A stretch of DNA of 64,000 nt from Vicinamibacteria bacterium (GCA_963743245.1 CAVUPP010000010.1:128910-192909); one strand, 5' to 3'; shown: positions 2,282 through 43,862, counted from the stretch's first letter. The notes: generated by a model from the letters alone, not told the origin. Program-made: numbers and translations.

Positions 2282-2764
2282 ATGACGGCTGGCGCGTGCG
2301 AGGAACTCATGCAGCAGGACGACATGACCATCACCATCCTCATCATGCTGGGCGCGATCGTGCTGGCTCTAACCCTCACCTTCCTGCTGTTCCTGTTCTG
2401 GAAGAGCCGCCCATTCGCCGACGGTGACGTGTTCGTCGCCAGCAGGATGAGCCGCGGCAATCGCCTCTTCCCGACGCAGGTTCTGATCGCGCCCACAAGC
2501 GTCGTGCACTACACGCCGCAGTGGATCGGCAAATACGAACAGTCGATCCACATGGCGCACGTGGCGTCGGTGACCATCGACACCGGCCTCCTCTTCTCGG
2601 ATGTCCGGATCGAGACGACGGGCGGTTCGAACGCGATTCACTGCCGGGGACACCGGAAGGGCGACGCCGTCCGGATGAAGCAACTCATCGAGACCTACCA
2701 AACGGAGTACTATCGGACCTCCGGTCCAGCTGGCTCCGGGCCTGGTTCTGTCGCGCCAGCCTGA
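2282..2764 (+). CDS. Membrane-anchored bacterial PH-domain (bPH_2/YdbS-like) protein
   Basis: Track ORF. It has one N-terminal TM helix (ITILIMLGAIVLALTLTFLLFLF) followed by a PH-like segment (TQVLIAPTSVVHYTPQW...SVTIDTGLLFSDVRIETTGG). Alternative ATG starts lie at 2309 and 2324. Confidence 0.6.
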   Translation: MTAGACEELMQQDDMTITILIMLGAIVLALTLTFLLFLFWKSRPFADGDVFVASRMSRGNRLFPTQVLIAPTSVVHYTPQWIGKYEQSIHMAHVASVTIDTGLLFSDVRIETTGGSNAIHCRGHRKGDAVRMKQLIETYQTEYYRTSGPAGSGPGSVAPA

Positions 2765-2778
2765 AGCAGCCGATAAGG

Positions 2779-11023: not shown

Positions 11024-11025
11024 GT

Positions 11026-12255
11026 TCAGACTTTCGCGGGCGGAACGGCCGGCGCGTCGGCGTGATCCTGCTTCGCCGCGCGTGCGGCGATCTCGACGGG
11101 GCCGCCCAGCATCCGCACGAAGCCTGCCGCTGCCGTCCGGTCGAACTGGTCGCCGCCTGCGTGCGTGGCCAGCGCGGCCTCATATTGCGCAAACGGAGAC
11201 GTGCGTCCGACGACGCGGACGTCGCCGTGGAACAGCTTCACGCGAACAGTACCAGTGACACGTTGCTGGACGCGCGCGACGAAAGCGTCGAGCGCATCCC
11301 GCGTGGGCGTGAACCACCGGCCGTCGTACACCAGGTCGGCGTACGCGTTGGCGACGACGTCGGACAGTCTCGCGAGATCGCGGCCCGTGACGAAGCGCTC
11401 GAGATCTCGGTGCGCCGCATGCAGCACCGTAGCCGCCGGCGCTTCGTAGATCTCACGGGTCTTGATCCCGACAATTCGGTTCTCGACCATGTCGATCCGC
11501 CCGACGCCATGGTCGCCAGCGATCGTCGTCAGCGCGTCCACGAGCTCGACGAGCGGCATCGTGACCCCGTTGACCGAGACGGGAACGCCCTGCGCGAATC
11601 CCACCTCGACGTAGGCGGGTTCACCGGCGCACGCGGCGGGCTCGCGGGTCAGCGCGAAGATCTCGGCCGGCGCTTCCTGCCAGGGATCGTCGAGCACACC
11701 GCACTGAACCGACCGGCCCCAGAGATTGGTGTCGATGCTGTACACAGGATCGGTTGCACCGGTCATGGCGATGCCGCGGGCGCGCGCGAAGGCAAGTTCC
11801 TCGGCGCGGTTCATTCCCCAATCACGAGCCGGTGCGAGTACCGTCAGCGCGGGATCGAGCGCCCGGATCGACAGCTCGAGTCGCACCTGGTTATTGCCCT
11901 TTGCGGTCCCGCCGTGCGCGACCGTGGATGCGCCTTCCATCCTCGCGATTTCCACGAGGCGCCGGGCGATGAGCGGGCGTGCCAGCGCCGACGCGAGCGG
12001 ATAGTGCCCCTCGTAGAGCGCGCCAGCCTGCAGCGCCGGCAGGACGTACTCTCGCGCGAACTCGTCCTGGCAATCAAGCACATGGCAGCGAGCGGCTCCC
12101 GCCCCACGCGCACGCGCCCGCACGTGTTCGAGCTCTTTGCCCTGACCAAGGTCGAGCGTGACCGTCACGACCTCCGCGCCCAGATGCTCCACGAGCCAGG
12201 GGATGGCAACGGACGTATCGAGGCCGCCGGAATACGCGAGAACGATGCGAAGCAT
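11026..12255 (-). CDS. argG: Argininosuccinate synthase
   Basis: Track ORF, 409 aa. AYSGGLDTS (the N-type ATP-PPase motif), GATGKGNDQ-like AHGGTAKGNNQVR and DTNLWGRS. It ends 2 nt before the argH start. Confidence 0.95.
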   Translation of the reverse strand: MLRIVLAYSGGLDTSVAIPWLVEHLGAEVVTVTLDLGQGKELEHVRARARGAGAARCHVLDCQDEFAREYVLPALQAGALYEGHYPLASALARPLIARRLVEIARMEGASTVAHGGTAKGNNQVRLELSIRALDPALTVLAPARDWGMNRAEELAFARARGIAMTGATDPVYSIDTNLWGRSVQCGVLDDPWQEAPAEIFALTREPAACAGEPAYVEVGFAQGVPVSVNGVTMPLVELVDALTTIAGDHGVGRIDMVENRIVGIKTREIYEAPAATVLHAAHRDLERFVTGRDLARLSDVVANAYADLVYDGRWFTPTRDALDAFVARVQQRVTGTVRVKLFHGDVRVVGRTSPFAQYEAALATHAGGDQFDRTAAAGFVRMLGGPVEIAARAAKQDHADAPAVPPAKV

Positions 12256-12256
12256 T

Positions 12257-12346
12257 TTCAGGTTACAGACTTCAGGCTACAGACTTCAGACTTCAGGCTA
12301 CAGGCTACAGGCCAGCTACGAACTACGAACTACCAACTACCAACTA
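12257..12346. repeat. 7-nt-period array (cagactt x2, caggcta x2, ctacgaa x2, ctaccaa x2)
   Basis: Read directly, between the argR stop (12350) and the argG start (12255). Confidence 0.7.
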
Positions 12347-12349
12347 GAT

Positions 12350-12802
12350 TCATCTCCCAATGATGTCGCCGACGCGATCGGCGAACGCGACGGCCCGCCG
12401 GGCATCGCGGAGTATCACGAGGATGGTGTCGTCTCCAGCGATCGTGCCCACCACATCCGGAAGCAAGGCCCGGTCGATGGCAATAGCGGTCGGATTTGCC
12501 TGCGCCGGCGGTGTCTTGAGGACCACGAACTGCTGCACCCGGTCCACCTGGGTCACTGAGTCCGCAATCGCCCGCGTCATCGCCCCTGGGGCGCCGGACG
12601 GCGTGACGACCGCGCCAGTCGCGCGCTGGTACGCCCCGTCAGCAGCGCGTTTGACGAGCCCGAGCTCCTTGATATCCCGCGAAATCGTGGCCTGCGTGGC
12701 ATCGAGCCCGGCCGCATGGAGCCCTTTCCGGAGCTGTTCCTGGTTCCGAATGGGCTCGCGGTCCAGGAGCTGAAGAATGATGGCTTGTCGTCGTGCCTTC
12801 AT
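12350..12802 (-). CDS. argR: Arginine repressor
   Basis: Track ORF, 150 aa. The N-terminal winged helix (RQAIILQLLDREPIRNQEQLRKGLHAAGLDATQATISRDIKELGLVK) and the C-terminal GTIAGDDTILV motif are typical of ArgR/AhrC. Confidence 0.9.
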   Translation of the reverse strand: MKARRQAIILQLLDREPIRNQEQLRKGLHAAGLDATQATISRDIKELGLVKRAADGAYQRATGAVVTPSGAPGAMTRAIADSVTQVDRVQQFVVLKTPPAQANPTAIAIDRALLPDVVGTIAGDDTILVILRDARRAVAFADRVGDIIGR

Positions 12803-12927
12803 GAATATTCACCGGGACGAAAGAGTATACACGAGTGGATTACCCGGATGCCACGCCCCTAACGGTCGCGCCACAAAATTTACTTGATCCACCGTACGGC
12901 AGGCCGTATACTTATCCGCTCCACTGG

Positions 12928-13941
12928 ATGAAACAGGACGCCATGGGGCAGGACGGACCAGTCAGAGTCGGAATAGCGGGCGCGACCGGGTATGCCGGGC
13001 AGGAACTGCTGCGCCTGCTGGCCCGCCATCCTGGAGCGGCGGTGACGACCGCGATGGGCTCGAGCGCCACCAGCTCGCCTCGCGACCTGCCAGCGCTCTC
13101 CCACTTGTGGTCGGGGCACGTCGTGCCGCTCGACCTCGATGTCCTGGCTTCCGAGGCTGACGCCGTCTTCCTGGCGCTGCCAGAGGAGGCCTCGGCCGCG
13201 GTGGCGCCACAGCTTCTGGCCCGCGGGCACCGGGTCTTCGACCTCTCGGGCGCGTTCCGGCTGAGGGACGAGCAGGCGCGGGCGAAGTGGTACCCCGACA
13301 CCAGGCAGCTGCCTGAGGGGACGCTGTACGGCCTCACCGAGCACGCCAGGCAGGGTATGGCGTCCGCGCGGCTGATCTCGTGCCCGGGCTGTTATCCGAC
13401 GGCCGCCGCGCTGGCGATCAAGCCCCTGGTCGCAGCAGGCCTGGTTGCCGGCGACATCGTCATCGACGCGAAGTCTGGTGTATCGGGCGCCGGCAAGACG
13501 CCCACCGAGCGCACCCACTTCTCCGAAGCGCACGGCAGCGTGTCGGCCTACAAGGTGTTCGCCCATCGGCATGCCGCCGAAATCGAGCAGGAGGTCGGTC
13601 GGCCGGTCACGTTCGTGCCGCACCTGGTGCCGCTCGATCGCGGCATCCTCGAGACGATTTACCTCCGTGTGCCGCAGGGCACGACCGACGCGACGATTGC
13701 CGCCGCATATGCCGCCGCATACGCCGGCGCCTGCTTCGTGCGCATCACCGGCACGACGCTACCGGTCATCAAGCAGGTGGCATGGTCGAACTTCTGTGAC
13801 ATCGGTTGGGCGCTCGACGAGCCGACGAGCCGCCTCGTGGTCGTTTCAGTCATCGACAACCTCGTCAAGGGCGCCGCCGGGCAAGCCGTTCAGAACTTCA
13901 ACGTCGTCTACGGCTTCAACGAGCGGACGGGACTCGTGTGA
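12928..13941 (+). CDS. argC: N-acetyl-gamma-glutamyl-phosphate reductase
   Basis: Track ORF 12835..13941. VGIAGATGYAGQELLRLL, an active-site Cys in SCPGCYPTA, and VIDNLVKGAAGQAVQN. ATGs at 12928 or 12943 are more plausible starts than the GTG at 12835. Confidence 0.9.
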   Translation: MKQDAMGQDGPVRVGIAGATGYAGQELLRLLARHPGAAVTTAMGSSATSSPRDLPALSHLWSGHVVPLDLDVLASEADAVFLALPEEASAAVAPQLLARGHRVFDLSGAFRLRDEQARAKWYPDTRQLPEGTLYGLTEHARQGMASARLISCPGCYPTAAALAIKPLVAAGLVAGDIVIDAKSGVSGAGKTPTERTHFSEAHGSVSAYKVFAHRHAAEIEQEVGRPVTFVPHLVPLDRGILETIYLRVPQGTTDATIAAAYAAAYAGACFVRITGTTLPVIKQVAWSNFCDIGWALDEPTSRLVVVSVIDNLVKGAAGQAVQNFNVVYGFNERTGLV

Positions 13942-18830: not shown

Positions 18831-18833
18831 GTG

Positions 18834-20529
18834 ATGATCAGCAAGCCCTGGCTCCAGCACTACGACGAAGGCGTTCCAGCCTCTCTCCAGCCGTACCCGG
18901 ACACCACCCTCGTTGACGCCGTCGCCGAGGCGGCGCGTGATCGGCCGCAGCATCCAGCGCTCCTCTTCAAGGGCACCGTCGTCACGTTCGGTGAGCTCGA
19001 CCGCCTGAGCACGGCTCTCGCGGCCGAGCTCGCCGCGGACGGCGTCCGCAAGGGCGATCGCGTCGCTCTCGTGCTTCCGAATTGTCCCCAGTTCGTCATC
19101 GGGCAATTCGGCATCTGGAAAGCCGGCGGCGTCGTCGTGCCGATCAATCCGATCTACACGGAACGTGAACTGACGCTGGCGCTCAGCGAATCTGGCGCTG
19201 GCATCGCCATCGCGCTGACGCGCCTGTACGACCGCTTGAAAGCTGTCCAGCCTGGCACCTCGGTTCGCCGTGTGATCGCGACGAACATCAAAGAGCACTT
19301 GCCGCGCCTGCAGGCGCTCCTGTTCACGCTGCTGAAGGAAAAGAAAGACGGTCATCGAATCACCCTCGCCGAGGGCGACCGCTGGTTCCGCGAGGTGCTC
19401 GTGTCGGGCGGCAGGCGTCCCGCGCCACCAACGAGGCCGCTGCCGGGCGATCCCGCGGTGCTGCTCGGCAGTGGCGGAACCACGGGAACGCCAAAAGCCG
19501 CCATCGGTGACCATCGTGTCTACGTCCAGGCGGGCTTACAGCTGCGTGCGTGGACCGGCTCGGTCTTCGAGAAATACACCGACATCATCCTGCTGCCGCT
19601 GCCGCTCTTTCACGTGTACGCCAACGTCGGCGTCCAGGCGATGGCGATTGTGGGTCACAACCCTGTCGCACTGGTTCCGAATCCGCGGGACATCGACGAC
19701 CTGCTCAAGACGATCCGGAAAGTCCGGCCGGCGTTCTTCGCGGGCGTCCCCACGCTCTTCAACGCGATACTGAATCACCCGTCGGTCGGGGCGGGCCGCG
19801 TCGATCTCGAGCTCGATCAAGATTTGCTTCTCGGGCGCGTCGGCGTTGCTGGCCGAGACCCGCCGACAGTTCGTCGAAATGACGCGCGGACACATCGTAG
19901 AAGGGTATTCCCTCACCGAAGGGATGATGGCGTGCATCCTCAATCCGGTGAAAGGCCCCGCGAAGAACGGTTCGATCGGAATGCCGCTCCCGGACGTGAC
20001 GGTCCAGATCGTAGACGCGGACGACAGCTCACAACGCCTCGGCCCGGGCGAGGTGGGCGAGCTCATCATGCAGGCGCCGCAGTTGATGAGCGGTTACTGG
20101 GGCAACCCGGGTGAGACGGCTGACGTTCTTCGGCAACGGCCGGATGGCGGCACCTGGCTGTACACGGGTGACATCGGGTATGCCGACGAGGACGGCTACG
20201 TCTACCTCGTCGATCGCAAAAAGGATCTGATCAAGACGAGCGGCTTTCAGGTCTGGCCGCGCGAGATCGAAGAAGTGCTCGCCGCTCACCCGTCGGTCGT
20301 CGAGGTCGCGGCGGCCGGCATCGCGGACTCTGCAAAAGGAGAGGTCGTCAAGGCGTGGGTCGTGCTGAAGGAAGGCGCCCACGCCACCGAGGACGACCTG
20401 CGCCGCTGGTGCCGCGAGCGTCTCGCGGCCTACAAAGTTCCTGCGAGCGTCGAGTTCCGATCGGAGCTGCCCAAGAGCCTCGTGGGCAAAGTGCTGCGGC
20501 GTGCGCTCGCCGGTCGTCAGCCTGCTTGA
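18834..20529 (+). pseudogene. Long-chain-fatty-acid--CoA ligase (AMP-binding family), frame broken by one extra nt near 19809
   Basis: Track ORFs 18831..20114 and 19846..20529 are the two halves. The first is good up to ...HPSVGAGRVDL. The +1 frame continues SSIKICFSGASALLAETRRQFVEMTRGHIVEGYSLTE...TGDIGYADEDGYVYLVDRKKDLIK...PKSLVGKVLRR. Confidence 0.85.
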
Positions 20530-21201: not shown

Positions 21202-23507
21202 ATGGACCTTCTGCTCGGCCTGTCTTTGTTCGGCGTGGCCTTCATCGTGGCGCTGATCGTGCCCATCCTCGGCTGGGTGCGCGCGGCGCACGCGATGAAC
21301 GAGGTGCGGCAGCTGCGCACACGCATCGGGGCAATCGAACAGGAGCTGAGGAAGCTCACTCAAGCACGAGTCGTTCCTGGTGCCGATGCGGCGTCCGCCG
21401 TCCCCTCGGAGCCCGTCATGGTGACGCCTCCCGCAGGCGAGATCCGCGTCGCGGCAGCTCCTCCCGTCGAAGCGACGGCACAGGAACTGATCGCCGCGCC
21501 CCCTGTCCCGGATCCCGTTCCTGCCGATCTTCCGCACCCCGAGCCCGCGCTGCCACACGTCCAGAGCACACCGGCGCCGGTCGTGGCGTCCCCAGCCCGA
21601 ACCGGCGAAGGCGTCGAAGCGGCAATCGGTGGGCGGCTGCTCCTGTACGCGGGCGCCTTGACGGTCATCCTGGGGGTTGCCTTCTTCCTGAAGTACGCGT
21701 TCGACCGGAACTGGATTACCGAGTGGATGCGTGTCGCAATCGGCATCCTGTCCGGCATCGGGTTCGTGGCGCTCGGCCTTCGGCTCGCTCGAGCGGGATA
21801 CCGGGGCTACGGCCAGATTCTGAGCGGCGTAGGCCTGGCGGCCCTCTACCTCTCCGTCTACGCGGCGTTCAGCTTCTACGACCTGATCGGCCGGACGGCG
21901 GCGTTCGCGCTTGTTGCTCGGTGTCACGGTGGCCGCGGCCTGGCTGTCGGATCGCCAGGAGTCGCAGGGCATGGCCGTGATGGCCGTCGGCGGCGGATTC
22001 CTCACGCCATTTCTCGTGGGCGGCGACTCGGACGCGCAGATCACGTTGTTCTCGTATGTGGCGTTGCTGATTGTCGGCACGCTCTGGCTCGCCCGGCGGC
22101 GAGGCTGGCCGCTGCTCCTGGTAATGGCATACGGATTCACGCTGATGACCGTCGGCGCGTGGGCAGCCGATTACTACACGCCCTCCAAGTACCTGCGAAC
22201 GACGCTCCTGCTGACAATGTTCTGCGGACTGTTCATCCTCGCGCGCTGGGACGTGGCGGCATCCACGACCGGGAGCGCGCGGTTTGCCAATTCGATTCTC
22301 GCGTCGGCTCCGGTGCTCTATCACATCGCCATCGTCGGGCTGCTGTTCAACCACGGCGTGGCGCTCCTCGTCTATCTGATTGCGGTGAGCCTCGTCGGCG
22401 TCGGATGGGCGATGCACACCGAGCGAGCGGGCCTTCGCCTGGTCATGTGGGCCGCCGTGCTGCTGCCGCTCATCGGCTGGGTGTCGGATCATCAGACCCG
22501 CGCGTGGATCCTTCCAGGACTGGTCACCATCGGCGCCGTCTTTCTGATCCACCTGGTCGCGCAGTTCGACCGTTTGATTCGACACGACACGAAGCTCGGA
22601 TGGCAGGACCTCGTCCTGGCCCACGGCAACGGTCTCGGCGCCTTCCTGGCCGTGTACGTCCTGCTCGAGCACACATCCCTCGCCTGGGTTCCCTACGCCG
22701 GCCTGGTGCTGGCGGCGCTTCACGCCGTCGTGGGACGGCAGATACGCCTTCGTGACCTCTCGGCCTCGCTTCACGCCCTGGCGGTGGCGTTCTCGCTGCT
22801 CGCTGCCGTCGTTGCGGTGCAATTGGATGGAGCGTGGCTGACAGCGGCCTGGAGCGCAGAAGGCGCAGCCGTTGTGCTCATCGGTGTCTGGATGGGACAG
22901 ACGTGGTTCCGGACCGCTGGAGCTGCGCTGTTCACGGTGGCTGTGTGGCGCTGGCTCGCTTTTACGGTGCCGTCCGAACCAGCGGTGTTCGATCCGTTCC
23001 TGAACGAGACGCTTGTTGCTCGGCCTGTGGCTGACCGGACTGCTCTACGTGATGGCATGGGCCCATCACAAGGCGGCGCCGTCGCTCCCCTACCGTCGCG
23101 ACAGCCTGGCAACGCTGCTCATCGCCGCCAGCATCATCACGACAATCACGTTGACGGCGCAGTCAGAATCGTACTGGCAGCAGCAGGGTGGCACGAGCCC
23201 AGACGCCACGTTCGCTCGAGGACTGACGCTCTCGGTGCTGTGGGCGGCATATGCCGGGCTGCTCATCGTGCTCGGGATCCGCAAGCGCTACCCGCCCATC
23301 CGGTACTTCGCGATCGGACTCCTCGCGATCACGATCGGCAAGGTGTTCCTGTCGGATCTGTCCGAGCTCGAAGGCATCTACCGCGTGCTCGGCCTCCTCA
23401 TCGTCGGCGCGATTCTGCTCGTCGTCTCTTTCCTGTATCAGCGCGTGACGCGCGCCGCCGCGACGGAAGATGCACCGCCCCCGGCGGCAACAGATTCGGC
23501 CGGATAG
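21202..23507 (+). pseudogene. DUF2339-type polytopic membrane protein, frame broken twice (near 21910 and 23012)
   Basis: Three track ORFs (21202.., 21911.., 23013..23507), each shifted +1 from the previous one, carry consecutive hydrophobic segments. These include ...AFFLKYAFDRNWI..., ...GGGFLTPFL... and the C-terminal FLSDLSELEGIYRVLGLLIVGAILLVVSFLYQR. Each ORF turns into Arg/Pro-rich nonsense after its junction. Confidence 0.75.
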
Positions 23508-24365
23508 TCACGGCCGTGCGGCGCCCATCTGGAGTCGCCCCACGTGATCGAACGCATAGCTGCGTTCGATGTCGCTATCGGCACACTGGCCTCCAGGGTT
23601 GTGATACTCGGGGAGCGGACGCGCCGGTGTGGCACAAACCGTCAGGCGATACCGCCCTTCCGCCGGCGGTGCCGCCAGGTCGAACGCGATGGGTTCTCCA
23701 CGAATGAAGTCTCCTGGCATGCGACGCTCGACAAGCGGCGGAGCGGCCGCATCAAGGCGCTGGAGACGATACAGCAGCGACGCCGCGGTACGGCTCGAAC
23801 GCATCACGACGCGGTAGCCCTCGATCGGCCGGTCCACCGCGCCGGACTCTGAGAGCACCACCGCGGGCACGACATCCGTGGCGGTTGCCAGACCGCGTTG
23901 CGGAACGACGACGACGCCAATGTTGTCGCGTAGCCCGGAAATCCCGTCAATCACGTCAGTCGTCTTCCACGGACCGAAGGCGTTCCACGCGTTGCTCCGC
24001 CACTGGGCCGGCTTTGACTCCATACGGTAGTGATGCTCGTCCTCGAGCTCCCGCGCGAGCACGAACGTTGTCGAGGCCGCCCCCGCCAGGCGGGCAGGCA
24101 GGAAAAAGGCCACCCTGAGGCTGCTTGCGGCCGGGATCTTGAGGCGCGACGTGGTGAACGACAGCAGCTCCCATTCCGGATTCGCAGCGTCCTCGGCAAT
24201 CGCCGCTTCGTACCGATTGCCGCGATCGGCGGCCGTGGTTTTCCATGCGTCCTCCGCTCGGGCAGTGAGCACCGCGGCCATGCAGCAGACAATGACACGC
24301 ATCGCGCCGAATAGATGCCGGCGGGACCACGAGGAAAACAGAGACGACTTGCGCGTGCCACTCAT
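23508..24365 (-). CDS. Hypothetical exported protein (last gene of the EAD/protease operon)
   Basis: Track ORF, 285 aa, with a signal-like N-terminus (MRVIVCCMAAVLTARA). Its ATG overlaps the upstream stop (ATGA at 24362-24365). No family was recognised. Confidence 0.6.
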   Translation of the reverse strand: MSGTRKSSLFSSWSRRHLFGAMRVIVCCMAAVLTARAEDAWKTTAADRGNRYEAAIAEDAANPEWELLSFTTSRLKIPAASSLRVAFFLPARLAGAASTTFVLARELEDEHHYRMESKPAQWRSNAWNAFGPWKTTDVIDGISGLRDNIGVVVVPQRGLATATDVVPAVVLSESGAVDRPIEGYRVVMRSSRTAASLLYRLQRLDAAAPPLVERRMPGDFIRGEPIAFDLAAPPAEGRYRLTVCATPARPLPEYHNPGGQCADSDIERSYAFDHVGRLQMGAARP

Positions 24366-24793
24366 GGATTGGTGTTTCGCTTGATGCTGTACGTCCGGGT
24401 AGGTTCCTTGAACTGGATGGTGTCGTCGTTCACGAAGAGACCGGTGATGTTGACCTTGGTGCCAGCGCGATCGACACTGATCGTCACGGTCTTGTTGACA
24501 TACGTTCCCGTGACCGGGTTGGTGGACCCGTTCAACTGCTCGTTGCTCGACGAGTTGAACGACCCCGACTTCTGTCCATCCTGATCCACGAGGAGAGCGA
24601 ACCGGTGCGTTGGCGAGACGAATGCGCCGGCCCCATCGATCTCATCCCACACGAACGTGAAGTTCGGAATGAAGTTGGTGTCGCCGCCGATGATGCCTGT
24701 GCCGCTGTCGCTTCCACAACTGGCGAGCGCGAGGAATCCGAGCACGGCCGCCAGCCGTGGCAGATGAACGATCGCGGTTCGATAGTGAGACAT
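24362..24793 (-). CDS. Hypothetical small lipoprotein
   Basis: ATG at 24791-24793, preceded by AGGAGG. The lipobox is LGFLALASC and the mature part is Thr/Asn/Gly-rich and beta-like. The region is visibly less GC-rich than its surroundings. Confidence 0.6.
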   Translation of the reverse strand: MSHYRTAIVHLPRLAAVLGFLALASCGSDSGTGIIGGDTNFIPNFTFVWDEIDGAGAFVSPTHRFALLVDQDGQKSGSFNSSSNEQLNGSTNPVTGTYVNKTVTISVDRAGTKVNITGLFVNDDTIQFKEPTRTYSIKRNTNP

Positions 24794-24819
24794 ACCGCCT
24801 CCTGAACGCGTTTCCTGGA

Positions 24820-25995
24820 TCACTGGCCCACCGAGAGCAGGGGTTTCATGCGATCGAGCAGGTCTGCCACCAGTGGTTTGGCTTCCTTCAACTGACCATC
24901 GAGCTCAGCCAGCGCGCTGGTCAGCGTCTTCTGTTCGTCTTTCGAGAGCTTCTTGTTGACTACGAGCAACGCGACGATGTCGGCGAGCTGGTTGTAGATG
25001 ACGCTGTTGTGCAGCGAGTAGAGGCGAGTCGTGACGTGCTCGAAATCGGTGGCGCGCGCACCGCCCCATTGCGTCCGGATCGACTCCTGTAGCGCCGTCC
25101 GCCGCGGATACCAGTTCTGGAACGCCGCGTTGTAATCGATCGTCACCTTGCGGACCTCCGGTCCGAGGAGCTTCTTGCGCTTGAAGAACGCGCCCACCGC
25201 CTCCATCTGAAAGAGGTAGTCGTTCAACGTCTTCGACACGTCCTCGAAAACGGCCCGACGAACCTTGCGACTGAACGGGTCAGTGCCGCCAATCAGGTTC
25301 GTCTGGAGCCGGTACGACGACGCGAACGACAGCAGCTCACGCGCGCTCGTCGCGCGGCTGCCGAGCGCCGCGTGCGTCGTGAAGATGCCCAACAGGCAAG
25401 GACGGTCGTTCAGTACAGGACCGCCGGATGCGCCGCGATCGCTGCCGTGGCCGGTCAGGATGAAGCGCCGCGAATCCCCTTCGAACGAGTCGGCGAGAAT
25501 GGCGTCCACGGAACTGACCGTCCAGTCTCCACTGGCGTGACCGATGACATTGGCCTGCTCCTGCTTCTGCGGGTCCTGGTAGCACAGCGTCGGTCCGTCC
25601 GCCATCCTGTGCGCCACCTCAGGAGCCGCCAGGTCCAGCAGTGCCAGATCCACCTGGCTTCGGCAGGCCACGAGCGTCGCACCGCTGAGCGGGGCCGCCT
25701 GATTCGGAAACGCGATGGACAGCGCGCCTGTCGAAGGACACACGTCCGTGCCCCCGGCGTCTCCGCTCGCCGCCGCATCGGCGGGCCGCACGACATGAAG
25801 CGCCGTGGCAATGGTCAGATGATCGCCAGACGTGCCCACGACCAGCCCGGCACCCGTCTCGTCTGCCGTGACGATCTTCACGACGCGCTGGCTGATCTCC
25901 GTGAGGTCCGGCGGCTCCGTCGGAGAACGCGAGTCTTGTGGAGGCGCTTGGGCCAGGATCGACGCCACCGCGACAGCTGCAGCCACGAGCCTCAT
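24820..25995 (-). CDS. Exported trypsin-like (S1/Trypsin_2) serine peptidase with a C-terminal helical domain
   Basis: ATG at 25993-25995 (ATGA overlap with the upstream stop) and signal peptide MRLVAAAVAVASILAQA. The catalytic-triad contexts are TALHVV (His), DLALLDL (Asp) and GASGGPV (Ser). A helical extension of about 150 aa of unknown family follows. Confidence 0.8.
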   Translation of the reverse strand: MRLVAAAVAVASILAQAPPQDSRSPTEPPDLTEISQRVVKIVTADETGAGLVVGTSGDHLTIATALHVVRPADAAASGDAGGTDVCPSTGALSIAFPNQAAPLSGATLVACRSQVDLALLDLAAPEVAHRMADGPTLCYQDPQKQEQANVIGHASGDWTVSSVDAILADSFEGDSRRFILTGHGSDRGASGGPVLNDRPCLLGIFTTHAALGSRATSARELLSFASSYRLQTNLIGGTDPFSRKVRRAVFEDVSKTLNDYLFQMEAVGAFFKRKKLLGPEVRKVTIDYNAAFQNWYPRRTALQESIRTQWGGARATDFEHVTTRLYSLHNSVIYNQLADIVALLVVNKKLSKDEQKTLTSALAELDGQLKEAKPLVADLLDRMKPLLSVGQ

Positions 25996-27263
25996 TGAGC
26001 GCGCTCCCACTGGGGCCGGCTCCAGCCGGCGAATCGCGGCCACGAGACGAGCAGGAGGAGCACGCCGACCCCCGCAAGCAGCGCGGGACGACGAAGGATC
26101 ACGGCGAAGACGGTTGGTATCAGGTCGCGCGTCTCGCCTCCCTCGACGATTGCGATACGCCGTGCACGGCCCACGAGGTGAACTCTGAGCGACGATCCGG
26201 CCGTGAGCGTGAGGCTCCCGGCGTCGAGACCCGAGAGCCGGAGCCTGGCGCCCGGATCGATCTGGACGGGTCCTGCGGATGCGTCGCGATAGGTCAGCGT
26301 GCCTCGCTGGATCGTCGAGACGGTTCGATCGTCGAGGCGGTCGTCGAATGACAACGTATCGACAACATCGACCGAGATGTCGGGCAGCGCCACGGAGTTC
26401 TTGTCCGACTCCAGCAGCAGAGCCATCCGTTCGCGGCCGCCTTGCACCCGCAAGAGTCCTCCTCCATGTGCCTCGTCCGTAAAGCGACCGACGGCGTGAG
26501 CGTCACAGCCGGGACAGCGGATCCCGCGGACGCGGGTGGATTTGAAAAGAGCGGATGCCGATCCCTGACGAAGCAGGACCTTGAGTGTGCCCTGCTCGTC
26601 TGCCGTCGTACCGATTTGAAGGACCGCGCCGCCCGGTGCGGTGAGCGTGAACCCACTCACGGCATCACCCGTCACCGCGGCCGTGGCGTCGGTCGATGTG
26701 AGCTCCGCAGCGCCACCGTTCAACGACATGCCAGCCAGCCGCTGGGCCGCGACTGATGCCAGACGAACGCCAGCGATCAGAGTGGCGTCTCGATCGTCCC
26801 GGCCATCCAGCCTCATCGTGACCACGCGTGCATCGACGTCGAGTGTGACATTGGCCGGCATGCGCATGATGCTGGACACCACACCCAGCGCGAGTACGGC
26901 ACACCATCCAGCGCCGAACACGAGATTGACGCGCCGCGTCGAGAGCCGGCGCCACCACGGGAGCACGTCCCTGACGTGAGGTGCGTCGAGGACGGTGAGC
27001 AGTCGGGCGGCGGTGGTTGAGAGGCGTTCGTTGCCTGGATTCTCCTCGCGCGCCCCAGCGATCAGCGCACGCGTGCGGCCCGTGGCCTCGGCCCAGGTGA
27101 TCACTTTGAACGTGGCGTCGGAGAGATTGCCGGCACCTGCGATCGCCTGCAGGTTTGCGCCCAGATGGAACGTCAGCAGCTGGGCGAGGCTGTCGAGCGT
27201 CGGGAACGCCTCGAGCAAGGCGCCATGGAGATCCTGCAGATCCTCGCCCGAGAGCTGCGGCAT
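25992..27263 (-). CDS. Two-TM membrane protein with an N-terminal effector-associated-domain (EAD1-like, Death-like adaptor)
   Basis: ATG at 27261-27263. Residues 1-85 (LSGEDLQDLHGALLEAFPTLDSLAQLLTFHLGANLQAIAGAGNLSDATFKVITWAEATGRTRALIAGAREENPGNERL) closely match the EAD1 consensus as I recall it. TM1 (VNLVFGAGWCAVLALGVVSSI) follows, then a beta-rich segment of about 270 aa and a C-terminal TM (ALLAGVGVLLLLV). Confidence 0.7.
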   Translation of the reverse strand: MPQLSGEDLQDLHGALLEAFPTLDSLAQLLTFHLGANLQAIAGAGNLSDATFKVITWAEATGRTRALIAGAREENPGNERLSTTAARLLTVLDAPHVRDVLPWWRRLSTRRVNLVFGAGWCAVLALGVVSSIMRMPANVTLDVDARVVTMRLDGRDDRDATLIAGVRLASVAAQRLAGMSLNGGAAELTSTDATAAVTGDAVSGFTLTAPGGAVLQIGTTADEQGTLKVLLRQGSASALFKSTRVRGIRCPGCDAHAVGRFTDEAHGGGLLRVQGGRERMALLLESDKNSVALPDISVDVVDTLSFDDRLDDRTVSTIQRGTLTYRDASAGPVQIDPGARLRLSGLDAGSLTLTAGSSLRVHLVGRARRIAIVEGGETRDLIPTVFAVILRRPALLAGVGVLLLLVSWPRFAGWSRPQWERAQ

Positions 27264-28513: not shown

Positions 28514-29644
28514 TTACACGGCAGCACCTTCAGGATACTGAAGAGCCAAGCGCAACTCTCGAGCTAGTCCTTCGACCGTGCTGCCGTTCCGTTTCCACGC
28601 GCCGTCAGTCTCGAAACGCAAGTCGCCAATGCGCCGGCCCCACGGAGCGATGACCCTGCCGATGGCGCGGAAGTCCGTCCGGTCGGCACGCTCCTGATCC
28701 AATCGACGGACCACATCCGGCGCGACCCGGATGAACGCACGAAGCGCCGGTGCCGTGCGGATGCTGTATTTCCGCCCGTTCCAGGCCGCGTTGAACACGA
28801 GCGCGATCTGTTTGAAGTAGTTGACGAAGAACCGCGTGGATTCCTCGCGGAACTCTTCGTGCTTCCGTGCGGCGCCGAACGCCTCGGCGGCAAACAGCTT
28901 TTTCAGCTCCTGCGCGATCGGCGCCTGCGCGACCTTGCCGCGTCCCACACCCAGCAGCTTGATGTTGCCGTGCAATGCGGAACCTTCGCGCTCGTTCAGC
29001 GCGCGCACGACGTCATGCGCCGCCGCCAGATTCTCGTCGCGATACAGCTGACGCCCCGAGAGCGAGACCAGATGCGAGGCGTTGAGCCGCGTGTGCTTGG
29101 CGTTGATCGTGACGAACATCTGCACGATGTGATCTTCGGGCAGTTGGTCGAAGATGATGGCCGGCACCGTGAAGCGCTCGTCGCCGAAGGATTCGAGCGC
29201 CGCGTGCAGCGCCAGCAGGCGGTGCTGTCCGTCGATCGCGCGGAGGATGCCTTCACGCTCCGGCACTTTCAACGTGCCCACCAGGCTGGCCTCGGTAGCC
29301 GGCTCGAACCGAAGGCGCTCATCGCACGAAATGATGACGGCGCCCGCGATCGATGGCAGATCGCGCGCCTGCCGGCACTGCTCGTAGTACTGCACCAGCT
29401 CTTCGATCTTCCGCCGGATGATCTGACGCTGATACGACCTCTCGCTCGACGCGATCCGGCGTTCGAGCAGGTCCCAGTTGATCTTCGCCGCCGGACGGCG
29501 GCCGCCCCGCACCGGCTGGTGGGCCTGGTCCCCGTAGCGCAGGACTTCGAACCGGACCAGCTTATCGATGTCGTTGGCAGTGAGCGAGGCCTGGTAGAAC
29601 TGCACACCGAATTGCTGCATGCGGATGGCCGCAACATTGATCAT
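28514..29644 (-). CDS. DGQHR-domain protein (DndB/DpdB-like, ParB/Srx fold)
   Basis: Track ORF 28514..29686. The literal motif is ILRAIDGQHRLLAL, with FVTINAKHTRLNASH downstream. The ATG at 29644 (MINVAAIRMQQFG...) or at 29686 could be the start. Confidence 0.8.
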   Translation of the reverse strand: MINVAAIRMQQFGVQFYQASLTANDIDKLVRFEVLRYGDQAHQPVRGGRRPAAKINWDLLERRIASSERSYQRQIIRRKIEELVQYYEQCRQARDLPSIAGAVIISCDERLRFEPATEASLVGTLKVPEREGILRAIDGQHRLLALHAALESFGDERFTVPAIIFDQLPEDHIVQMFVTINAKHTRLNASHLVSLSGRQLYRDENLAAAHDVVRALNEREGSALHGNIKLLGVGRGKVAQAPIAQELKKLFAAEAFGAARKHEEFREESTRFFVNYFKQIALVFNAAWNGRKYSIRTAPALRAFIRVAPDVVRRLDQERADRTDFRAIGRVIAPWGRRIGDLRFETDGAWKRNGSTVEGLARELRLALQYPEGAAV

Positions 29645-29747
29645 GGCGTAGTCCGTACGGCTCCCCCGGGGGGAGTCCCGGGGCATGCTGAATCGGCAGA
29701 TTCTACTGGCGGGACGCGCGGAATCTCAACCGCCTGCCCCAACCAGC

Positions 29748-31361: not shown

Positions 31362-33998
31362 TCAGTATGCCGGTCCAAGCAGGACCGCGTTGGCAAACAG
31401 CAGCTCCGTCGCTTCGGTGAACGCCCGGAAGTTGGGATCCTCGGCGAACGCCACCAGGTGACCGCGGCCAACTGGCTCTTCAATCAGAAAGGCCTTCTGC
31501 GCGAGGCTCTCGCGAGCTTCATCCCATACGAGTCCGCCGGCCACCAGGCGATCCTTTGCGGCATACAGGCCGACATTGCGGCCTTTGTCGAGCTTGATCG
31601 GAGCAAATACGCGCTGACCTTCGACGAGCGCCGCCGTCTCGCTCTCGTTGCCGGCACTCAACCAGTGTTCGTTGTCGAGCGTCACGCGAAGCACCGCGCC
31701 CGGCGTGTTCTCGGGCTGCTCGTGCTCCGGAGCAATCGCCTTCTCGAGGTCGTACGGCCGCGGCGGTTCCTGCGGCTTCTTGTCCTTGTCGGTCGCATCG
31801 ATGTCGGGCTTGCCATCGCGCAGCTCGGTGTGCGTGTCGAGCAGTCCGACTTTCTCACCTGTCGCCCATCGTGACGCATCGGCGATCGTGATGAGCGTCC
31901 CGCCACCGCGCATCCACTCCTTCAGATGACGCACTTGTTCCTCGCCGAGCGCCGACCCGTAGTTGCCCGATGGGATCACGATGACGTCAAAGGAGGTGAG
32001 CTCCACCCGGCCGATCGCGCTCACGCGCACGACGGTGACGGCCTGTCGAAATCGCCGCTCCAGGACGAACCGCGCCCAGCCTGCCGACTGCGAGTAGGTC
32101 GGCGTGTCCCACAACAGGAGGACGCGCGGCGCTTTCAACGTCACGACATCACCGCTCCCGAGCGACGGCCCCTGGTCAACCCACCCTGTGTCGATCGGCA
32201 CCACTTCGACGCCCGGAGCGGACGCCACGAGAGCGCCGAACTTCTCGAGCGCCGTCTGGTCGTTATCCGAGAGTCGAACGATGGCGGTGCCGGCCGTGTA
32301 TTTCCGGCCCCCCAGAGTGAACGCTTCGGTCACGTGTCGAATTCGGACGCCCGCCGCAAGCGCCTGGGCGACAAGGCCAGCGGCGTCGAATCCCCATGGC
32401 ACCAGATAGCCAACCTTCGCAGCCGGCAGCCGCCGCGCTGCGGGCGGCGCCGTCGCCAGCGGCGTGGCTCGCACTGACACCGCGCGATCGACGGCGGCGA
32501 CCTCGACGCCCGACAACAGCGGCAAGCTCCACCCGGTGACGTCGTAGAACTGATCGCTCATGCGGTTGCGCCGGCGACGATCCTGCTCCTTCACGAAGGT
32601 TTCAGGCTGCGGCACGTGGGCCTCCAGCAGGTTCCGCACCAGGCGTCCGGCGGGTTGCGCGGCCGAGACGAGGAAGGCGCCCGCCGGGATCGTTTTGCTC
32701 GATGGCAGCGTGAACGGTTCCGAGGTCTGCCGCACCTCGATCCCCTGCAGAACCAGCAGCTCCGCAAGGCGGCGCGCTCTCGACGGATCGCGCCCGGGCA
32801 CGAGGACGTAGTCGTGTGGCGTGGTTCTTTCGCCATCGGCCACCGCACTTCGCCTGTACTCCAGGTAGTCGCGCAGCAGCTGCTCCCGATGCGCCGCCGC
32901 CGTCTGCATGGTCGTCACTGCCGCGGTGAAGTGCTGGACGACGCCGTCGCGATAGGTGAGGAAGGTGCCGTCACGCCGGCGGTACACCAGACCTCGTGCG
33001 GATGACTTCTCGTACGTCATGCCGACCGCACCGTTGTAAATGGGCCACGACTCGCCGTACCCGGGATAGAACGAGTCGTACAGCTCGCGGATGAAGTACG
33101 GAAATCCTCGTGCGTCGAATCGAGCGGCGTTGGCGCGGCCGAAGGCCTCGAGCCAGCCGGCCTGCGTCTTCGTGATGTAGGGATTCAGCGGATCGGCCGG
33201 CGGCGCGAAGTAGTACGTGGATTCGCCGCCCATCTCGTGCAGGTCAACGACGACGTGCGGGTGCCACGTGAGTCCGACCTTGATGCGTCCGATCGTTTCA
33301 GGCTGCGACTGCGCGAACCAGTCACGGTTCATGTCGAACAGGTAGTGATTCGATCGGCCGCCGGGCCACGGCTCGTCGTGCTCGGCAGATGCGGGATTCG
33401 GATCGGGATCGGCCGCGCGTCCGAGCAGCGTCTGCGACACGAAGCGTGCGCGCCCGTCCGGGTTCTGGAGTGGATCGATCAGGACGACGGCGTCTTTGCG
33501 CACCGCATCCATCGCGGGATCGCGCTCCGCGGCCAGCAGGTGGTACGCCTCGAAGAGTGCGGCATCGCACGAGGAGATCTCGTTGCCGTGCACGGCATGC
33601 ATGAGCCAGACGACGACCGGCAGCCTTGCGATGAGACGGTCCGCCTCGGCTGGTGCGAGCCCGCGAGGATCGGCGAATCGCGTCAGGTCAGCCGTGAGCT
33701 GATCGAGCGATGCGATGCGCTCCGGTGACGCGATGATGAACAGGTAGAGCGGACGGCCCTCCCAGGTGCGGGCGTACTCGACGAGACGGGTCCGGTCGGG
33801 CGCAGCATCGTGCAACGCCTTCAAATAGATGGCGATGCCCTCTGGCGTCGTGATCTCAGCGCCCGGCTCGTATCCGAGGACCTGCTTCAGCGTGGGGATA
33901 GCGGGTGAATATGTGGACCCTGGCGCCAGTTCTTCCGCCTTGGCGGAACCGGCAAGACACGAAAGGGCAACCAGCAGGCAGACGACGCGAACGGACAA
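31362..33998 (-). CDS. Exported M14-family zinc carboxypeptidase-like protein (large, multi-domain)
   Basis: In track ORF 31362..34895, only the C-terminal roughly 878 aa are credible. A TTG at 33996-33998 precedes the signal peptide LSVRVVCLLVALSCLAGSAKA. The M14 zinc motif context is WLMHAVHGNEISS. The upstream part overlaps the divergent VWA gene. Confidence 0.75.
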   Translation of the reverse strand: MSVRVVCLLVALSCLAGSAKAEELAPGSTYSPAIPTLKQVLGYEPGAEITTPEGIAIYLKALHDAAPDRTRLVEYARTWEGRPLYLFIIASPERIASLDQLTADLTRFADPRGLAPAEADRLIARLPVVVWLMHAVHGNEISSCDAALFEAYHLLAAERDPAMDAVRKDAVVLIDPLQNPDGRARFVSQTLLGRAADPDPNPASAEHDEPWPGGRSNHYLFDMNRDWFAQSQPETIGRIKVGLTWHPHVVVDLHEMGGESTYYFAPPADPLNPYITKTQAGWLEAFGRANAARFDARGFPYFIRELYDSFYPGYGESWPIYNGAVGMTYEKSSARGLVYRRRDGTFLTYRDGVVQHFTAAVTTMQTAAAHREQLLRDYLEYRRSAVADGERTTPHDYVLVPGRDPSRARRLAELLVLQGIEVRQTSEPFTLPSSKTIPAGAFLVSAAQPAGRLVRNLLEAHVPQPETFVKEQDRRRRNRMSDQFYDVTGWSLPLLSGVEVAAVDRAVSVRATPLATAPPAARRLPAAKVGYLVPWGFDAAGLVAQALAAGVRIRHVTEAFTLGGRKYTAGTAIVRLSDNDQTALEKFGALVASAPGVEVVPIDTGWVDQGPSLGSGDVVTLKAPRVLLLWDTPTYSQSAGWARFVLERRFRQAVTVVRVSAIGRVELTSFDVIVIPSGNYGSALGEEQVRHLKEWMRGGGTLITIADASRWATGEKVGLLDTHTELRDGKPDIDATDKDKKPQEPPRPYDLEKAIAPEHEQPENTPGAVLRVTLDNEHWLSAGNESETAALVEGQRVFAPIKLDKGRNVGLYAAKDRLVAGGLVWDEARESLAQKAFLIEEPVGRGHLVAFAEDPNFRAFTEATELLFANAVLLGPAY

Positions 33999-34094
33999 GA
34001 CGGCCTCCGGGGAACGAACGTCTAAAGATGGATGATTTGCCGGCCCAAGTATAGCCGTCGGGACGGAGCCGACGCTCGTGCTAAGCTCCATTTC

Positions 34095-35030
34095 ATGACT
34101 CGCCTGCGCGTTTTTCTGCTCGCTGTCGTTGCGTCGGTCGCCGTCGCCAGCGGAGCCGGTCGTGCGCAGGGGCAGGCCCAGGGGCAGGCACCGCCTCAGG
34201 GGCCGACGTTCAAGACAGGCACGCAGCTGGTGCCGGTCTACGTGACCGTGACAGACCCCGAACGACACCTCGTCGCCGATCTGATCAAGGACGACTTCGA
34301 CGTCCTCGACAATGGCAAGCCCGTGCCGATCGTGCTGTTCGACGCGGAGGTGCAGCCGATCTCGGTCGTCACGATGCTCGACACGAGCGGCAGCATGACA
34401 GGCAGCCTCGATCTGTTGAAAGCCGCCGCTGAACAGTTCCTGATCCGCCTGCTGCCACACGATCGCGGCATGGTCGGCGCGTTCAACGACAAGATTCAGT
34501 TCGTATCGCCGTTGACGTCGGATCGAGACGATCTGGTGAGCTCGCTGCAGGACATCGGCTTCGGCAATCCCACGCGTCTGTACGACGCAATCGACGCGTC
34601 GCTCGAACAGCTCAAGCCGATCGAGGGCCGGCGCGTCGTGCTCATCTTCACGGACGGTGATGACACGTTCAGCAAGATCGGATCGGGGACGGTGCTCGAC
34701 CGAGCGCGCACTGACGAAGTGATGATCTATTCGATCGGCCTGCAGAGCGTGTACTTCAACGGCCAGCGCCAGGTGCGAACCCAGCCCGATCGCATTCTGA
34801 AGAAGTTGTCGGACGAGACCGGTGGCGGTTACTTCGAGTTGAAACGGACCGACGATCTGGGTCCGACCTTCACGCGCGTGGCTCAGGAGCTGCACAGCCA
34901 GTACTCACTGGCGTTTGCACCCGCAGCCGACGGCAAAGTGCACAAGCTCGAAGTCGTGGTGAAGCGGCCCGGGATGACCGCCCGCGCCCGGCGCAGCTAT
35001 CAGGCGCCTGGCGCCAAGGCCACACAATAG
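34095..35030 (+). CDS. Exported von Willebrand factor type A (VWA) domain protein
   Basis: ATG at 34095 and signal MTRLRVFLLAVVASVAVASGA. The MIDAS motif is MLDTSGSM, with FTDGDD downstream. Confidence 0.8.
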   Translation: MTRLRVFLLAVVASVAVASGAGRAQGQAQGQAPPQGPTFKTGTQLVPVYVTVTDPERHLVADLIKDDFDVLDNGKPVPIVLFDAEVQPISVVTMLDTSGSMTGSLDLLKAAAEQFLIRLLPHDRGMVGAFNDKIQFVSPLTSDRDDLVSSLQDIGFGNPTRLYDAIDASLEQLKPIEGRRVVLIFTDGDDTFSKIGSGTVLDRARTDEVMIYSIGLQSVYFNGQRQVRTQPDRILKKLSDETGGGYFELKRTDDLGPTFTRVAQELHSQYSLAFAPAADGKVHKLEVVVKRPGMTARARRSYQAPGAKATQ

Positions 35031-43773: not shown

Positions 43774-43796
43774 CGACGCGAGAGTAGCAAGAAAAG

Positions 43797-43862
43797 TGCG
43801 GAATGCGGAGTGCGGAGTGCGGAATGCGGCGTTAGCACCCCGAATTCCGAACTCCGAATTCA
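43797..43862. repeat. Imperfect inverted heptamer array (gcggaat/gcggagt arm versus ccgaatt/ccgaact arm)
   Basis: Read directly, between the WD40 gene stop (43860) and the cyclase start (43773). The two arms are complementary except for a periodic G/T difference. Confidence 0.7.

Follow-up and report, generated by a model that had tools for sequence, protein, structure and literature searches.

A rare chromosomal cassette of a Vicinamibacteria bacterium pairing an EAD1- or TIR-headed membrane protein with a predicted exported protease: an apparently undescribed variant of adaptor/TIR-based conflict systems

A 64,000-nucleotide (nt) stretch of the genome of a Vicinamibacteria bacterium (GCA_963743245.1 CAVUPP010000010.1:128910-192909), hereafter the window, along which all unlabeled positions are counted, carries a compact cassette of four genes, A to D, on its minus strand. 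Gene A encodes a predicted two-pass membrane protein headed by effector-associated domain 1 (EAD1), a Death-like helical adaptor; genes B, C, and D encode a predicted exported trypsin-fold serine protease, a predicted lipoprotein, and a further predicted exported protein. In sister cassettes with the same gene order, a TIR domain takes the place of EAD1 on an otherwise constant membrane module. The cassette is rare and, apparently, a so far undescribed variant of the adaptor/TIR-based conflict systems, one whose protease-receptor front end lies outside the cytoplasm, and we consider it fairly probable that it works as a chromosomal, self-contained conflict (immune or abortive-infection) module, which signals from the envelope to the cytoplasm and whose partner is encoded elsewhere. 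The features of the cassette are as follows.

25992..27263, minus strand: gene A, 423 amino acids (aa), predicted two-pass membrane receptor (open reading frame, ORF; homologs all start with MPQLSGED)
27000..27257, minus strand: EAD1, residues 3-88 of A (Pfam PF19955)
26865..26933, minus strand: first transmembrane (TM) helix of A, TM1, residues ~111-133 (hydropathy and AlphaFold2, AF2, helix), with the basic WWRRLSTRR on its N side
26088..26864, minus strand: predicted periplasmic, beta-rich ectodomain of A, residues ~134-392 (alignments and AF2)
26505..26516, minus strand: CxxC of the A ectodomain (C250 and C253, RCPGC), invariant in the alignment
26022..26087, minus strand: second TM helix of A, TM2, residues ~393-414, followed by a basic C-terminal tail (hydropathy and AF2 helix)
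24820..25995, minus strand: gene B, 391 aa, predicted exported trypsin-fold serine protease (ORF, Trypsin_2 match, catalytic triad)
24798..24803, minus strand: AGGAGG ribosome-binding site of gene C, 4 nt 5' of the C ATG (24791-24793)
24362..24793, minus strand: gene C, 143 aa, predicted lipoprotein (ORF, lipobox)
23508..24365, minus strand: gene D, 285 aa, predicted exported protein, or 264 aa if the start is the ATG at 24302 (ORF)

A preliminary description of this DNA had likened the N-terminus of A to EAD1-type domains, and a profile search established this over the full length of the domain: the Pfam EAD1 model (PF19955) is matched with E = 6.7e-22 and 78.2 bits (cut-off 24.2) at profile positions 2-89 of 90. 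Such adaptors are known from EAD-coupled conflict systems (Kaur, Burroughs, Iyer & Aravind, eLife 2020, PMC7159879; eLife 2021, PMC8195603), for which the swap of an EAD for an effector domain in one and the same place serves as the criterion of adaptor coupling. This exchange, EAD1 for TIR on a constant TM-ectodomain-TM module, is observed in the relatives of gene A. Full-length A has homologs in six clusters, at 53-91% identity, among 5.8 billion proteins searched. A search with the A profile against 1.84 billion representatives gave 3745 matches; nearly all of the best 150 of these are EAD1-only matches, and both head diversity and prevalence are to be read as lower bounds. Among the matches listed, P0010 (E = 1e-60) and P0047 (E = 3e-21) align only over the TM-ectodomain-TM module, and their N-terminus is a TIR_2 domain (E = 3.8e-23 and 1.2e-14, respectively) in place of EAD1. 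TIR_2 occupies the same position of the module in the A gene of a third locus, L007. These TIR heads resemble the TIR models of defense systems (SAVED-TIR, pAgo-TIR, and ThsB), the PADLOC matches being to generic TIR only. The SKFVRDE of P0010 and the GTYALTE of P0047 share an S..(F/Y)...E context, which we take to be the one where TIR NADases carry their catalytic Glu (E73 in P0010). Bacterial TIR domains are usually NADases rather than scaffolds.

Four further loci that carry the cassette or part of it are as follows.

L005 (P0010), cassette at 10001-13744: TIR head; gene order A-B-C-D and 4-nt A/B overlap as in the window; context unrelated to the window
L007 (metagenome): TIR head; gene order A-B-C-D and 4-nt A/B overlap as in the window; context unlike those of the window and L005
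L006 (P0047): TIR head; A, then a B homolog, where the contig ends; partial
L008 (P0026): EAD1 head; D, A, and B, with C absent and D overlapping A by 4 nt; another context

The preliminary description treated the four genes as one operon; in keeping with this, they are conserved together across several unrelated contexts and diverge in step with one another. The L005 and L007 cassettes are 38% identical to that of the window in the A module, 52% in B, 45-46% in C, and 54-55% in D. P0026 is a distant EAD1-headed A, 30% identical to window A. Homologs of C are present at 45-71% identity in L003, L005, L007, and L011, and homologs of D in all the cassettes, L008 included. In L008, both the C-terminal domain of B and an extra 307-aa exported protein are DUF4019-like. 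Judging from these differences, the constant core of the cassette consists of D, A, and the protease domain, with C and the B C-terminal domain as a variable pair. The two cysteines of the CxxC belong to the few columns that are invariant across EAD1-headed and TIR-headed A homologs.

A gene convergent on the L008 cassette encodes EAD1, Macro, and DUF4062 domains (E = 1.2e-22, 1.9e-21, and 9.4e-19, respectively). Its EAD1 is the sole other one detected in all the loci examined with a local EAD1 hidden Markov model (HMM) built from 213 domains. DUF4062 is reported, in two bioRxiv preprints (10.64898/2026.05.01.722283 and 10.64898/2026.09.04.749371), as a TIR-like NADase of antiphage systems. 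Together with the TIR-headed cassettes, the L008 partner suggests two routes to one kind of output: a TIR domain fused to the membrane module, or an EAD1 head and an EAD1-tagged effector of the NADase type. Just past this gene, two overlapping genes at 16232-17996 of L008 (minus strand) encode 346-aa and 252-aa products of no known family; the latter has a weakly TIR_2-like N-terminus (E = 0.054), and they may be further components of the locus. As a separate observation on L008, the signal peptide and the His motif (VATAAHVV) of B, within 11419-12914, are out of frame with the rest of the gene, and the B product as called (434 aa) does not contain the catalytic His. The same gene call recurs in two assemblies (L008 and the Logan contig of ERR12036784), which can be explained either by a frameshifted protease or by a recurrent assembly error.

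Comparison with nearby relatives indicated that the locus is hypervariable, with deeply divergent whole-cassette alleles in otherwise similar genomes. L011, a 992,799-bp ENA contig, is syntenic with the window over >20 kb. The flanking proteins of the two are 77-97% identical (DndB-like 97, OTCase 94, VWA 92, ArgJ 90, and LamB 86%), whereas the cassette proteins share only 54% (A), 53% (B), 51% (C), and 61% (D). In the blastn comparison, the flanks are contiguous at ~80-82%, and the alignment breaks over the cassette, starting just past the EAD1 region and resuming in the 5' part of D. Nonsynonymous (dN) and synonymous (dS) divergence was estimated by the Nei-Gojobori method: the flanks show a dS of 0.68-0.92 and a dN/dS of 0.03-0.11, and the cassette genes a dS of 1.3-1.8, a dN of 0.30-0.45, and a dN/dS of 0.17-0.32, a rough value since dS is near saturation. 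The flanks of L003 are as distant as those of L011, yet its cassette is 71-83% identical to that of the window, with a dS like that of the flanks and a dN/dS of 0.10-0.20 (A 0.10-0.11, C 0.20, and D 0.13). The divergent L011 allele points to either allelic replacement or a long-maintained polymorphism, a pattern typical of conflict loci, and suggests exchange at the locus. The dN/dS of 0.10-0.32 in all four genes indicates purifying selection on real, constrained genes, and the four genes of the window are intact and full-length compared with all homologs. Gene-wide positive selection was considered and rejected, as dN/dS is at most 0.32. Within A, the ectodomain is 50% identical between L011 and the window and the head 70% (dN of 0.45 vs. 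0.19); faster divergence of the ectodomain is expected if it is the sensing surface.

The family is very rare, with about two dozen sequences: the nine family clusters looked up have 24 members among ~15 billion sequences. A word-index search with the module-only alignment gave no new member, the D alignment retrieved nothing from viral contigs, and tblastn with D and the A module found no match on plasmids. Scans with A alone and with the D alignment revealed no relative in the contigs of 185,579 species representatives; these scans were pattern-based, so absence is unproven. Aside from the cassettes, a 1018-nt Joint Genome Institute contig encodes a 254-aa protein (P0007) in which a PMT/ArnT-like glycosyltransferase is joined to residues 12-64 of a window-type EAD1 at 96% identity. 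This is probably a chimeric metagenome assembly, while a real rearrangement is possible.

The preliminary description presented A as a two-TM protein with a beta-rich, probably periplasmic segment. Two hydrophobic segments, ~111-133 and ~385-414, are indeed seen in the hydropathy profile, and AF2 places mostly beta strands in the ~260 aa between them; the periplasmic location is inferred. The N-terminal flank of TM1 is Arg-rich in all aligned A homologs; together with the basic C-terminal tail and the cytoplasmic type of the head, this points to a predicted topology with the N-terminus inside, the loop outside, and the C-terminus inside. A receptor of outside-in topology is supported, indirectly, by the loop CxxC as well and by the export signals of the partners (signal peptides in B and D and a lipobox in C). 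Directly before TM2, A has a conserved juxtamembrane motif, EGGxxRDL(R/I)PT. The AF2 model of the A module built with eight more diverse sequences has a mean predicted local distance difference test score (pLDDT) of 55.5 and a predicted template modeling score (pTM) of 0.49; that of full-length A, built with seven sequences, has a pLDDT of 38 and is unusable. A Foldseek search of the PDB with the module model returned noise only (best E 0.028, TM-score 0.10, to spike and Hcp proteins), and the ectodomain has no family match in Pfam, NCBIfam, PADLOC, PHROGs, or the PDB in sequence and profile searches. No homology among the A module, C, and D was found by hhalign, which gives no sign of D being a decoy copy of the ectodomain.

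As for the other three products, the exported S1-type protease with a C-terminal helical domain, which had been proposed for B, agrees with a Trypsin_2 match in Pfam (E = 4.6e-10, 40.8 bits, cut-off 27.6, residues 48-204) and with an intact triad, H67/D116/S190, in the canonical order and invariant in three aligned homologs (window, L003, and L005). The N-terminus of B, MRLVAAAVAVASILAQA, is signal-peptide-like (about residues 1-17) and varies among homologs, while the mature part is conserved. The protease domain is weakly DegQ/Do-like in the PDB (E ~0.02), and the NCBIfam DegS/DegP/HhoA models are matched with 10.7-11.3 bits against cut-offs of 416-450 (E 0.14-0.19 for DegS/DegP). No PDZ domain was found in B by Pfam and NCBIfam scans. 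PHROGs and PADLOC gave weak matches to the protease domain only (E = 0.0025 in PHROGs). The C-terminal domain (~236-391, ~155 aa) is helical, private to B, and belongs to no known family; an identity with PDC-M24B (PADLOC, E = 0.013) was considered and set aside as a chance match, as it is not listed for the L005 homolog at E<=0.01. C contains the lipobox LASC with an invariant C26, and D has a signal-like N-terminus and the conserved motifs DRGNRYE and YRMESKP. C and D were described earlier as a lipoprotein and an exported protein of no recognizable family, and sequence and profile searches of Pfam, NCBIfam, PADLOC, PHROGs, and the PDB gave no match for either.

The packing of the genes was read directly from the minus strand and matches the preliminary account of four minus-strand genes chained by ATGA overlaps with an AGGAGG before the third. 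The stop codon of A and the start codon of B overlap in ATGA at 25992-25995, as do the stop codon of C and the start codon of D at 24362-24365; the stop codon of B lies at 24820-24822, and the gap between B and C is 26 nt. The A/B overlap of 4 nt is kept in L003, L005, L007, L009, and the P0005 contig, and the spacing of C and D is tight elsewhere as well, from an overlap to a 0-4 nt gap (L005, L007, L011, and the P0002 contig). Since the D homologs can be aligned only from M22 of the window ORF (the ATG at 24302), the C/D overlap may not be the start really used. A promoter and terminator scan was uninformative.

A search for the partner of the EAD1 head was made in the window and around L011. 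The preliminary description stated that there is no NTPase partner within tens of kb, and for the 64-kb window the Pfam scans and the EAD1 HMM agree with this. Among 34 Pfam-scanned window proteins, no MoxR AAA+, DO-GTPase, or STAND NTPase core was found, and the sole AAA+ protein is an ordinary sigma-54 activator (2521-4131), ~22 kb away. Such a core is likewise unlisted in the precomputed gene tables of L005, L008, and L011. On the six-frame translation of the window, the local EAD1 HMM matched gene A alone, and no second EAD1 was found within 10 kb on either side of the L011 cassette; in the loci covered, the second EAD protein that EAD coupling calls for was found beside the L008 cassette. 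An NTPase carrying the same EAD, which had been named as the expected partner, is not a necessary one: none was seen in the five cassette contexts, of which L007 is represented by an ORF list, and EAD1 systems without an NTPase core have been described (Kaur et al. 2020, PMC7159879).

The cassette shares with the systems of Kaur et al. the homotypic EAD1 adaptor, interchangeable with an effector domain, and the trypsin-like peptidase components; some of their members are also located near the membrane (EACC1-caspase), and some uses of EAD1 do without an NTPase core. Unlike these systems, it contains no NTPase, vWA-MoxR, GAP1, NucA, caspase, or EACC1 component; the module that stays constant has two TM helices and a large ectodomain, and its three partners are exported. 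For the A ectodomain, C, D, and the B C-terminal domain, there is no match to any described family. The core genes of the NTPase-centered systems (vWA-MoxR ternary, GAP1/DO-GTPase, and STAND) were not found among the Pfam-scanned window proteins, and the nuclease domain of the NucA-peptidase system (System 3) is absent from A-D and their neighbors. In the EACC1-caspase system (System 4), a single-TM EACC1 is followed by a caspase, whereas here two TM helices with a 260-aa loop are followed by a trypsin fold. B belongs with the PA-clan trypsin-like peptidases by its profile match and the order of its triad; it differs from HtrA/DegS/DegP in having no PDZ domain and in scores far under the cut-offs of the family models. 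PADLOC-DB v2 has no match for A, C, or D and does not catalog the cassette, and PHROGs have no match for these three proteins. The cassette was not found in the text of PMC7159879 or PMC8195603, nor in the DUF4062 preprints, and no described TIR/EAD1-TM-protease cassette was found in the open-access literature.

Likeness to known antiphage systems lies in the output. The TIR_2 heads of the sister cassettes match the models of Thoeris ThsB, SAVED-TIR, and pAgo-TIR, and the L008 partner carries the DUF4062 of the Swarozyc, NIR, and Evangelion NADase systems. However, sensing in these TIR/DUF4062 systems is cytoplasmic, and they lack an ectodomain, a protease, and a lipoprotein. Envelope-spanning regulated proteolysis is known from DegS-RseA and from SpoIVB signaling in Bacillus. 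There, too, the gene of an extracytoplasmic serine protease goes with that of a membrane signaling protein with a cytoplasmic output domain, but the cassette has no PDZ domain, anti-sigma domain, or site-2 protease, and its outputs are of the immune type (EAD1 or TIR).

The proposed mechanism is as follows. A would be a two-pass receptor of the inner membrane, with its CxxC-bearing ~260-aa ectodomain in the periplasm and its head in the cytoplasm; B, D, and, in the subtype of the window, C would form the periplasmic sensing and processing part. A periplasmic event, for example the entry of a phage, an attack by a predator or toxin, or the action of a protease inhibitor, would alter what the protease cuts, the candidate substrates being the A ectodomain, or D or C as a pro-ligand or an inhibitor. 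The Arg-containing juxtamembrane EGGxxRDL(R/I)PT may be a protease site, which is speculation. Altered cleavage would shift the oligomeric state of A and cause its cytoplasmic heads to cluster. In the sister cassettes, a TIR NADase head would then give the output directly, whereas in the window the homotypic EAD1 adaptor would recruit an EAD1-tagged effector encoded elsewhere, for which the EAD1-Macro-DUF4062 protein of L008 is the model. The outcome would be NAD+ depletion or ADP-ribose-based signaling and, in turn, growth arrest. The envelope-to-cytoplasm signaling or abortive-defense module suggested in the preliminary description is supported by the TIR-for-EAD1 swap, by the EAD1-Macro-DUF4062 gene of L008, and by the co-conservation of the four genes.

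In Drosophila, a Spaetzle-processing serine-protease cascade activates Toll, which acts through TIR/Death adaptors, and the receptors Fas and TNFR1 have Death domains. It is conceivable, though we hold this only tentatively and as an analogy, that the cassette is a bacterial counterpart of Toll and death receptors, in which the protease processes a pro-ligand (D or C) or, as with protease-activated receptors, the ectodomain, the heads cluster, and NAD+ is destroyed; this would happen upon perturbation of the envelope by a phage or another attacker, before or independent of the entry of the invader's genome. The likeness consists of an extracytoplasmic trypsin-fold protease with secreted proteins, a membrane receptor, and a clustering TIR or Death-like head. 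Homology is shown for the TIR and Death-like heads alone: unlike in Toll and Toll-like receptors, the ectodomain of the cassette is unrelated (no leucine-rich repeats and no cystine-knot ligand), and the receptor has two TM helices.

Signaling in the opposite direction has to be weighed against this. A would then be an EAD1-tagged effector, as EAD1 fusions usually are, and a cytoplasmic core system encoded elsewhere would activate it through EAD1; the outward signal would unleash protease B, with C and D as its inhibitor or substrate, to destroy envelope proteins and kill the cell. According to Kaur et al. 2020 (PMC7159879), the primary role of EAD1 is to bring effectors to core systems, and effectors are often trypsin-like peptidases; moreover, the protease is the sole enzyme encoded in the cassette of the window. 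However, the TIR head of the sister cassettes, which has the conserved context of the Glu (SKFVRDE in P0010), belongs with enzymes or effectors and not with receivers, the EAD1 partner in L008 is itself of the effector type (Macro and NADase-like DUF4062) and is not a sensor or NTPase core, and the fastest-evolving part of A is not the head but the ectodomain, as expected of a sensor. We regard the outward direction as unlikely.

Another explanation keeps the outside-in architecture and changes the trigger: what is sensed would be factors secreted by competitors or predators, or else signals of kin or development, and the cassette would control programmed cell death or dormancy in a social soil bacterium. 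EAD systems have been linked to multicellular and social bacteria (Kaur et al.), the locus lies on the chromosome in conserved synteny and has been kept by vertical descent in several genomes, the viral contigs, plasmids, and PHROGs searched contain no match, and divergent alleles at one locus would also fit self/non-self recognition. TIR, DUF4062, and Macro domains, on the other hand, are best documented in antiphage defense, and although the computed results do not separate the triggers, we give a non-phage trigger a low probability. Ordinary envelope quality control or regulated proteolysis of the HtrA/DegS kind, with an accessory membrane protein, no role in conflict, and the EAD1 and TIR heads as generic interaction domains, is quite improbable: the weak DegQ/Do-like and DegS/DegP similarities of B and the housekeeping neighbors speak for it, but B has no PDZ domain or significant HtrA-family match, the family is extremely rare, the cassette is hypervariable between conserved flanks, and the heads are of the immune type and swapped between adaptor and TIR.

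Several points count against an envelope-to-cytoplasm conflict module. The topology of A is predicted from hydropathy, from the charges beside the helices, and from the kinds of domains present, and the low-confidence model of the ectodomain (pLDDT 55.5) has no structural neighbor. No recognizable defense island surrounds the cassette, the neighbors being housekeeping genes except for a stand-alone DndB/DpdB-like gene. The effector of the window subtype is hypothetical, since no second EAD1 lies in the 64 kb of the window or within 10 kb on either side in L011. The B gene of L008 appears frameshifted, which could be an assembly error. Finally, all members of the family are known from sequence alone, and the outside-in direction is one that we infer. 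We nevertheless prefer the module signaling from envelope to cytoplasm: the TIR heads, the effector-type partner in L008, the fast ectodomain, and the rarity and hypervariability of the cassette disfavor both outward signaling and envelope proteolysis.

The window is an ordinary piece of chromosome, with genes for, among others, arginine biosynthesis, AMP-binding, DUF2339, LamB/YcsF, acyltransferase, M14 peptidase, aldolase, proline racemase, MscS, CHASE2-cyclase, and Ser/Thr kinase proteins. The preliminary description had noted that the 3' half of the operon looks less GC-rich than its flanks and had noted that this would fit horizontal acquisition. The dip is real: the lowest-GC 1 kb of the window is 24301-25300, with 0.595 against a mean of 0.659 (standard deviation 0.018). 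It spans C and the 3' third of B rather than the whole 3' half, and the reading of the low GC as a mark of horizontal acquisition was rejected, because the GC content of third codon positions (GC3) of A-D is normal (0.76-0.81, within a window range of 0.73-0.87). In C and the B C-terminal domain, both rich in Lys, Asn, Thr, and Ser, codon positions 1-2 account for the dip; it thus arises from amino-acid composition and is not evidence of foreign origin.

Some other features of the window can be noted. The DndB/DpdB-like (DGQHR) gene at 28514-29686 (minus strand), two genes upstream of the cassette, matches Pfam DndB (8.5e-17) and PADLOC DpdB (3.8e-15), and dnd or dpd partners are not seen with it. 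No other gene of the neighborhood is as conserved (97% aa identity to L003 and L011, dN/dS 0.03). The DUF2339 gene (21202-23507, plus strand), convergent on D, is distributed over three frames (21202-21915, 21911-23017, and 23046-23483), and GC3 follows the frame changes; its homologs in the P0002 contig (770 aa) and L011 (761 aa) are intact, so it is either a pseudogene or the product of two assembly indel errors. The AMP-binding (acyl-CoA synthetase-like) gene at 18831-20526 (plus strand) lies in two frames (18834-19802 and 19810-20526) compared with an intact 564-aa homolog in L011, and the M14 peptidase, a single ORF in the window (31362-34895), is split in L011; both suggest indel-prone assemblies. 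Frameshifted-looking genes therefore occur in the window (DUF2339 and AMP-binding), in L011 (M14), and in L008 (B), and some of these indels are probably assembly errors.

Within 40625-44574 (minus strand), the gene for a 937-aa protein with CHASE2 and a class III nucleotide cyclase shares 4 nt with the M48 peptidase gene downstream of it (40625-41764); next comes the gene of an MscS-family channel (39368-40618). Pycsar PycC models match the cyclase domain (1.1e-25), perhaps through generic cyclase similarity. A single 960-aa ORF at 50349-53231 (plus strand) encodes both an MFS transporter (residues 3-361) and a carboxylesterase (441-913) and is either an unusual fusion or two genes merged via a lost stop codon or an indel. 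The tRNA-Glu (CTC) at 59054-59128 (minus strand) is the sole RNA gene found in the window by Rfam and ARAGORN.

The cassette defines at least three protein families without a Pfam or PDB relative, namely the A ectodomain, C, and D. It is small (3-4 genes), and its self-contained TIR version (L005 and L007) is directly clonable and testable; the alleles of the window and L011, with 51-61% identity in the cassette and 77-97% in the flanks, form a natural pair for specificity swaps. To our knowledge, almost all characterized bacterial immune systems sense the invader in the cytoplasm. If the proposed reading is true, the cassette would serve for surveillance of the envelope, its TIR or Death-like head lying inside the cell and its dedicated protease and exported partners outside. 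Should the more tentative likeness to Toll and death receptors hold as well, it would represent an extracytoplasmic pattern-recognition arm of prokaryotic immunity, built from still unnamed families. The proposed reading would also give a bacterial case of the logic of animal innate immunity, in which an extracellular protease, a membrane receptor, and TIR/Death domains act together.

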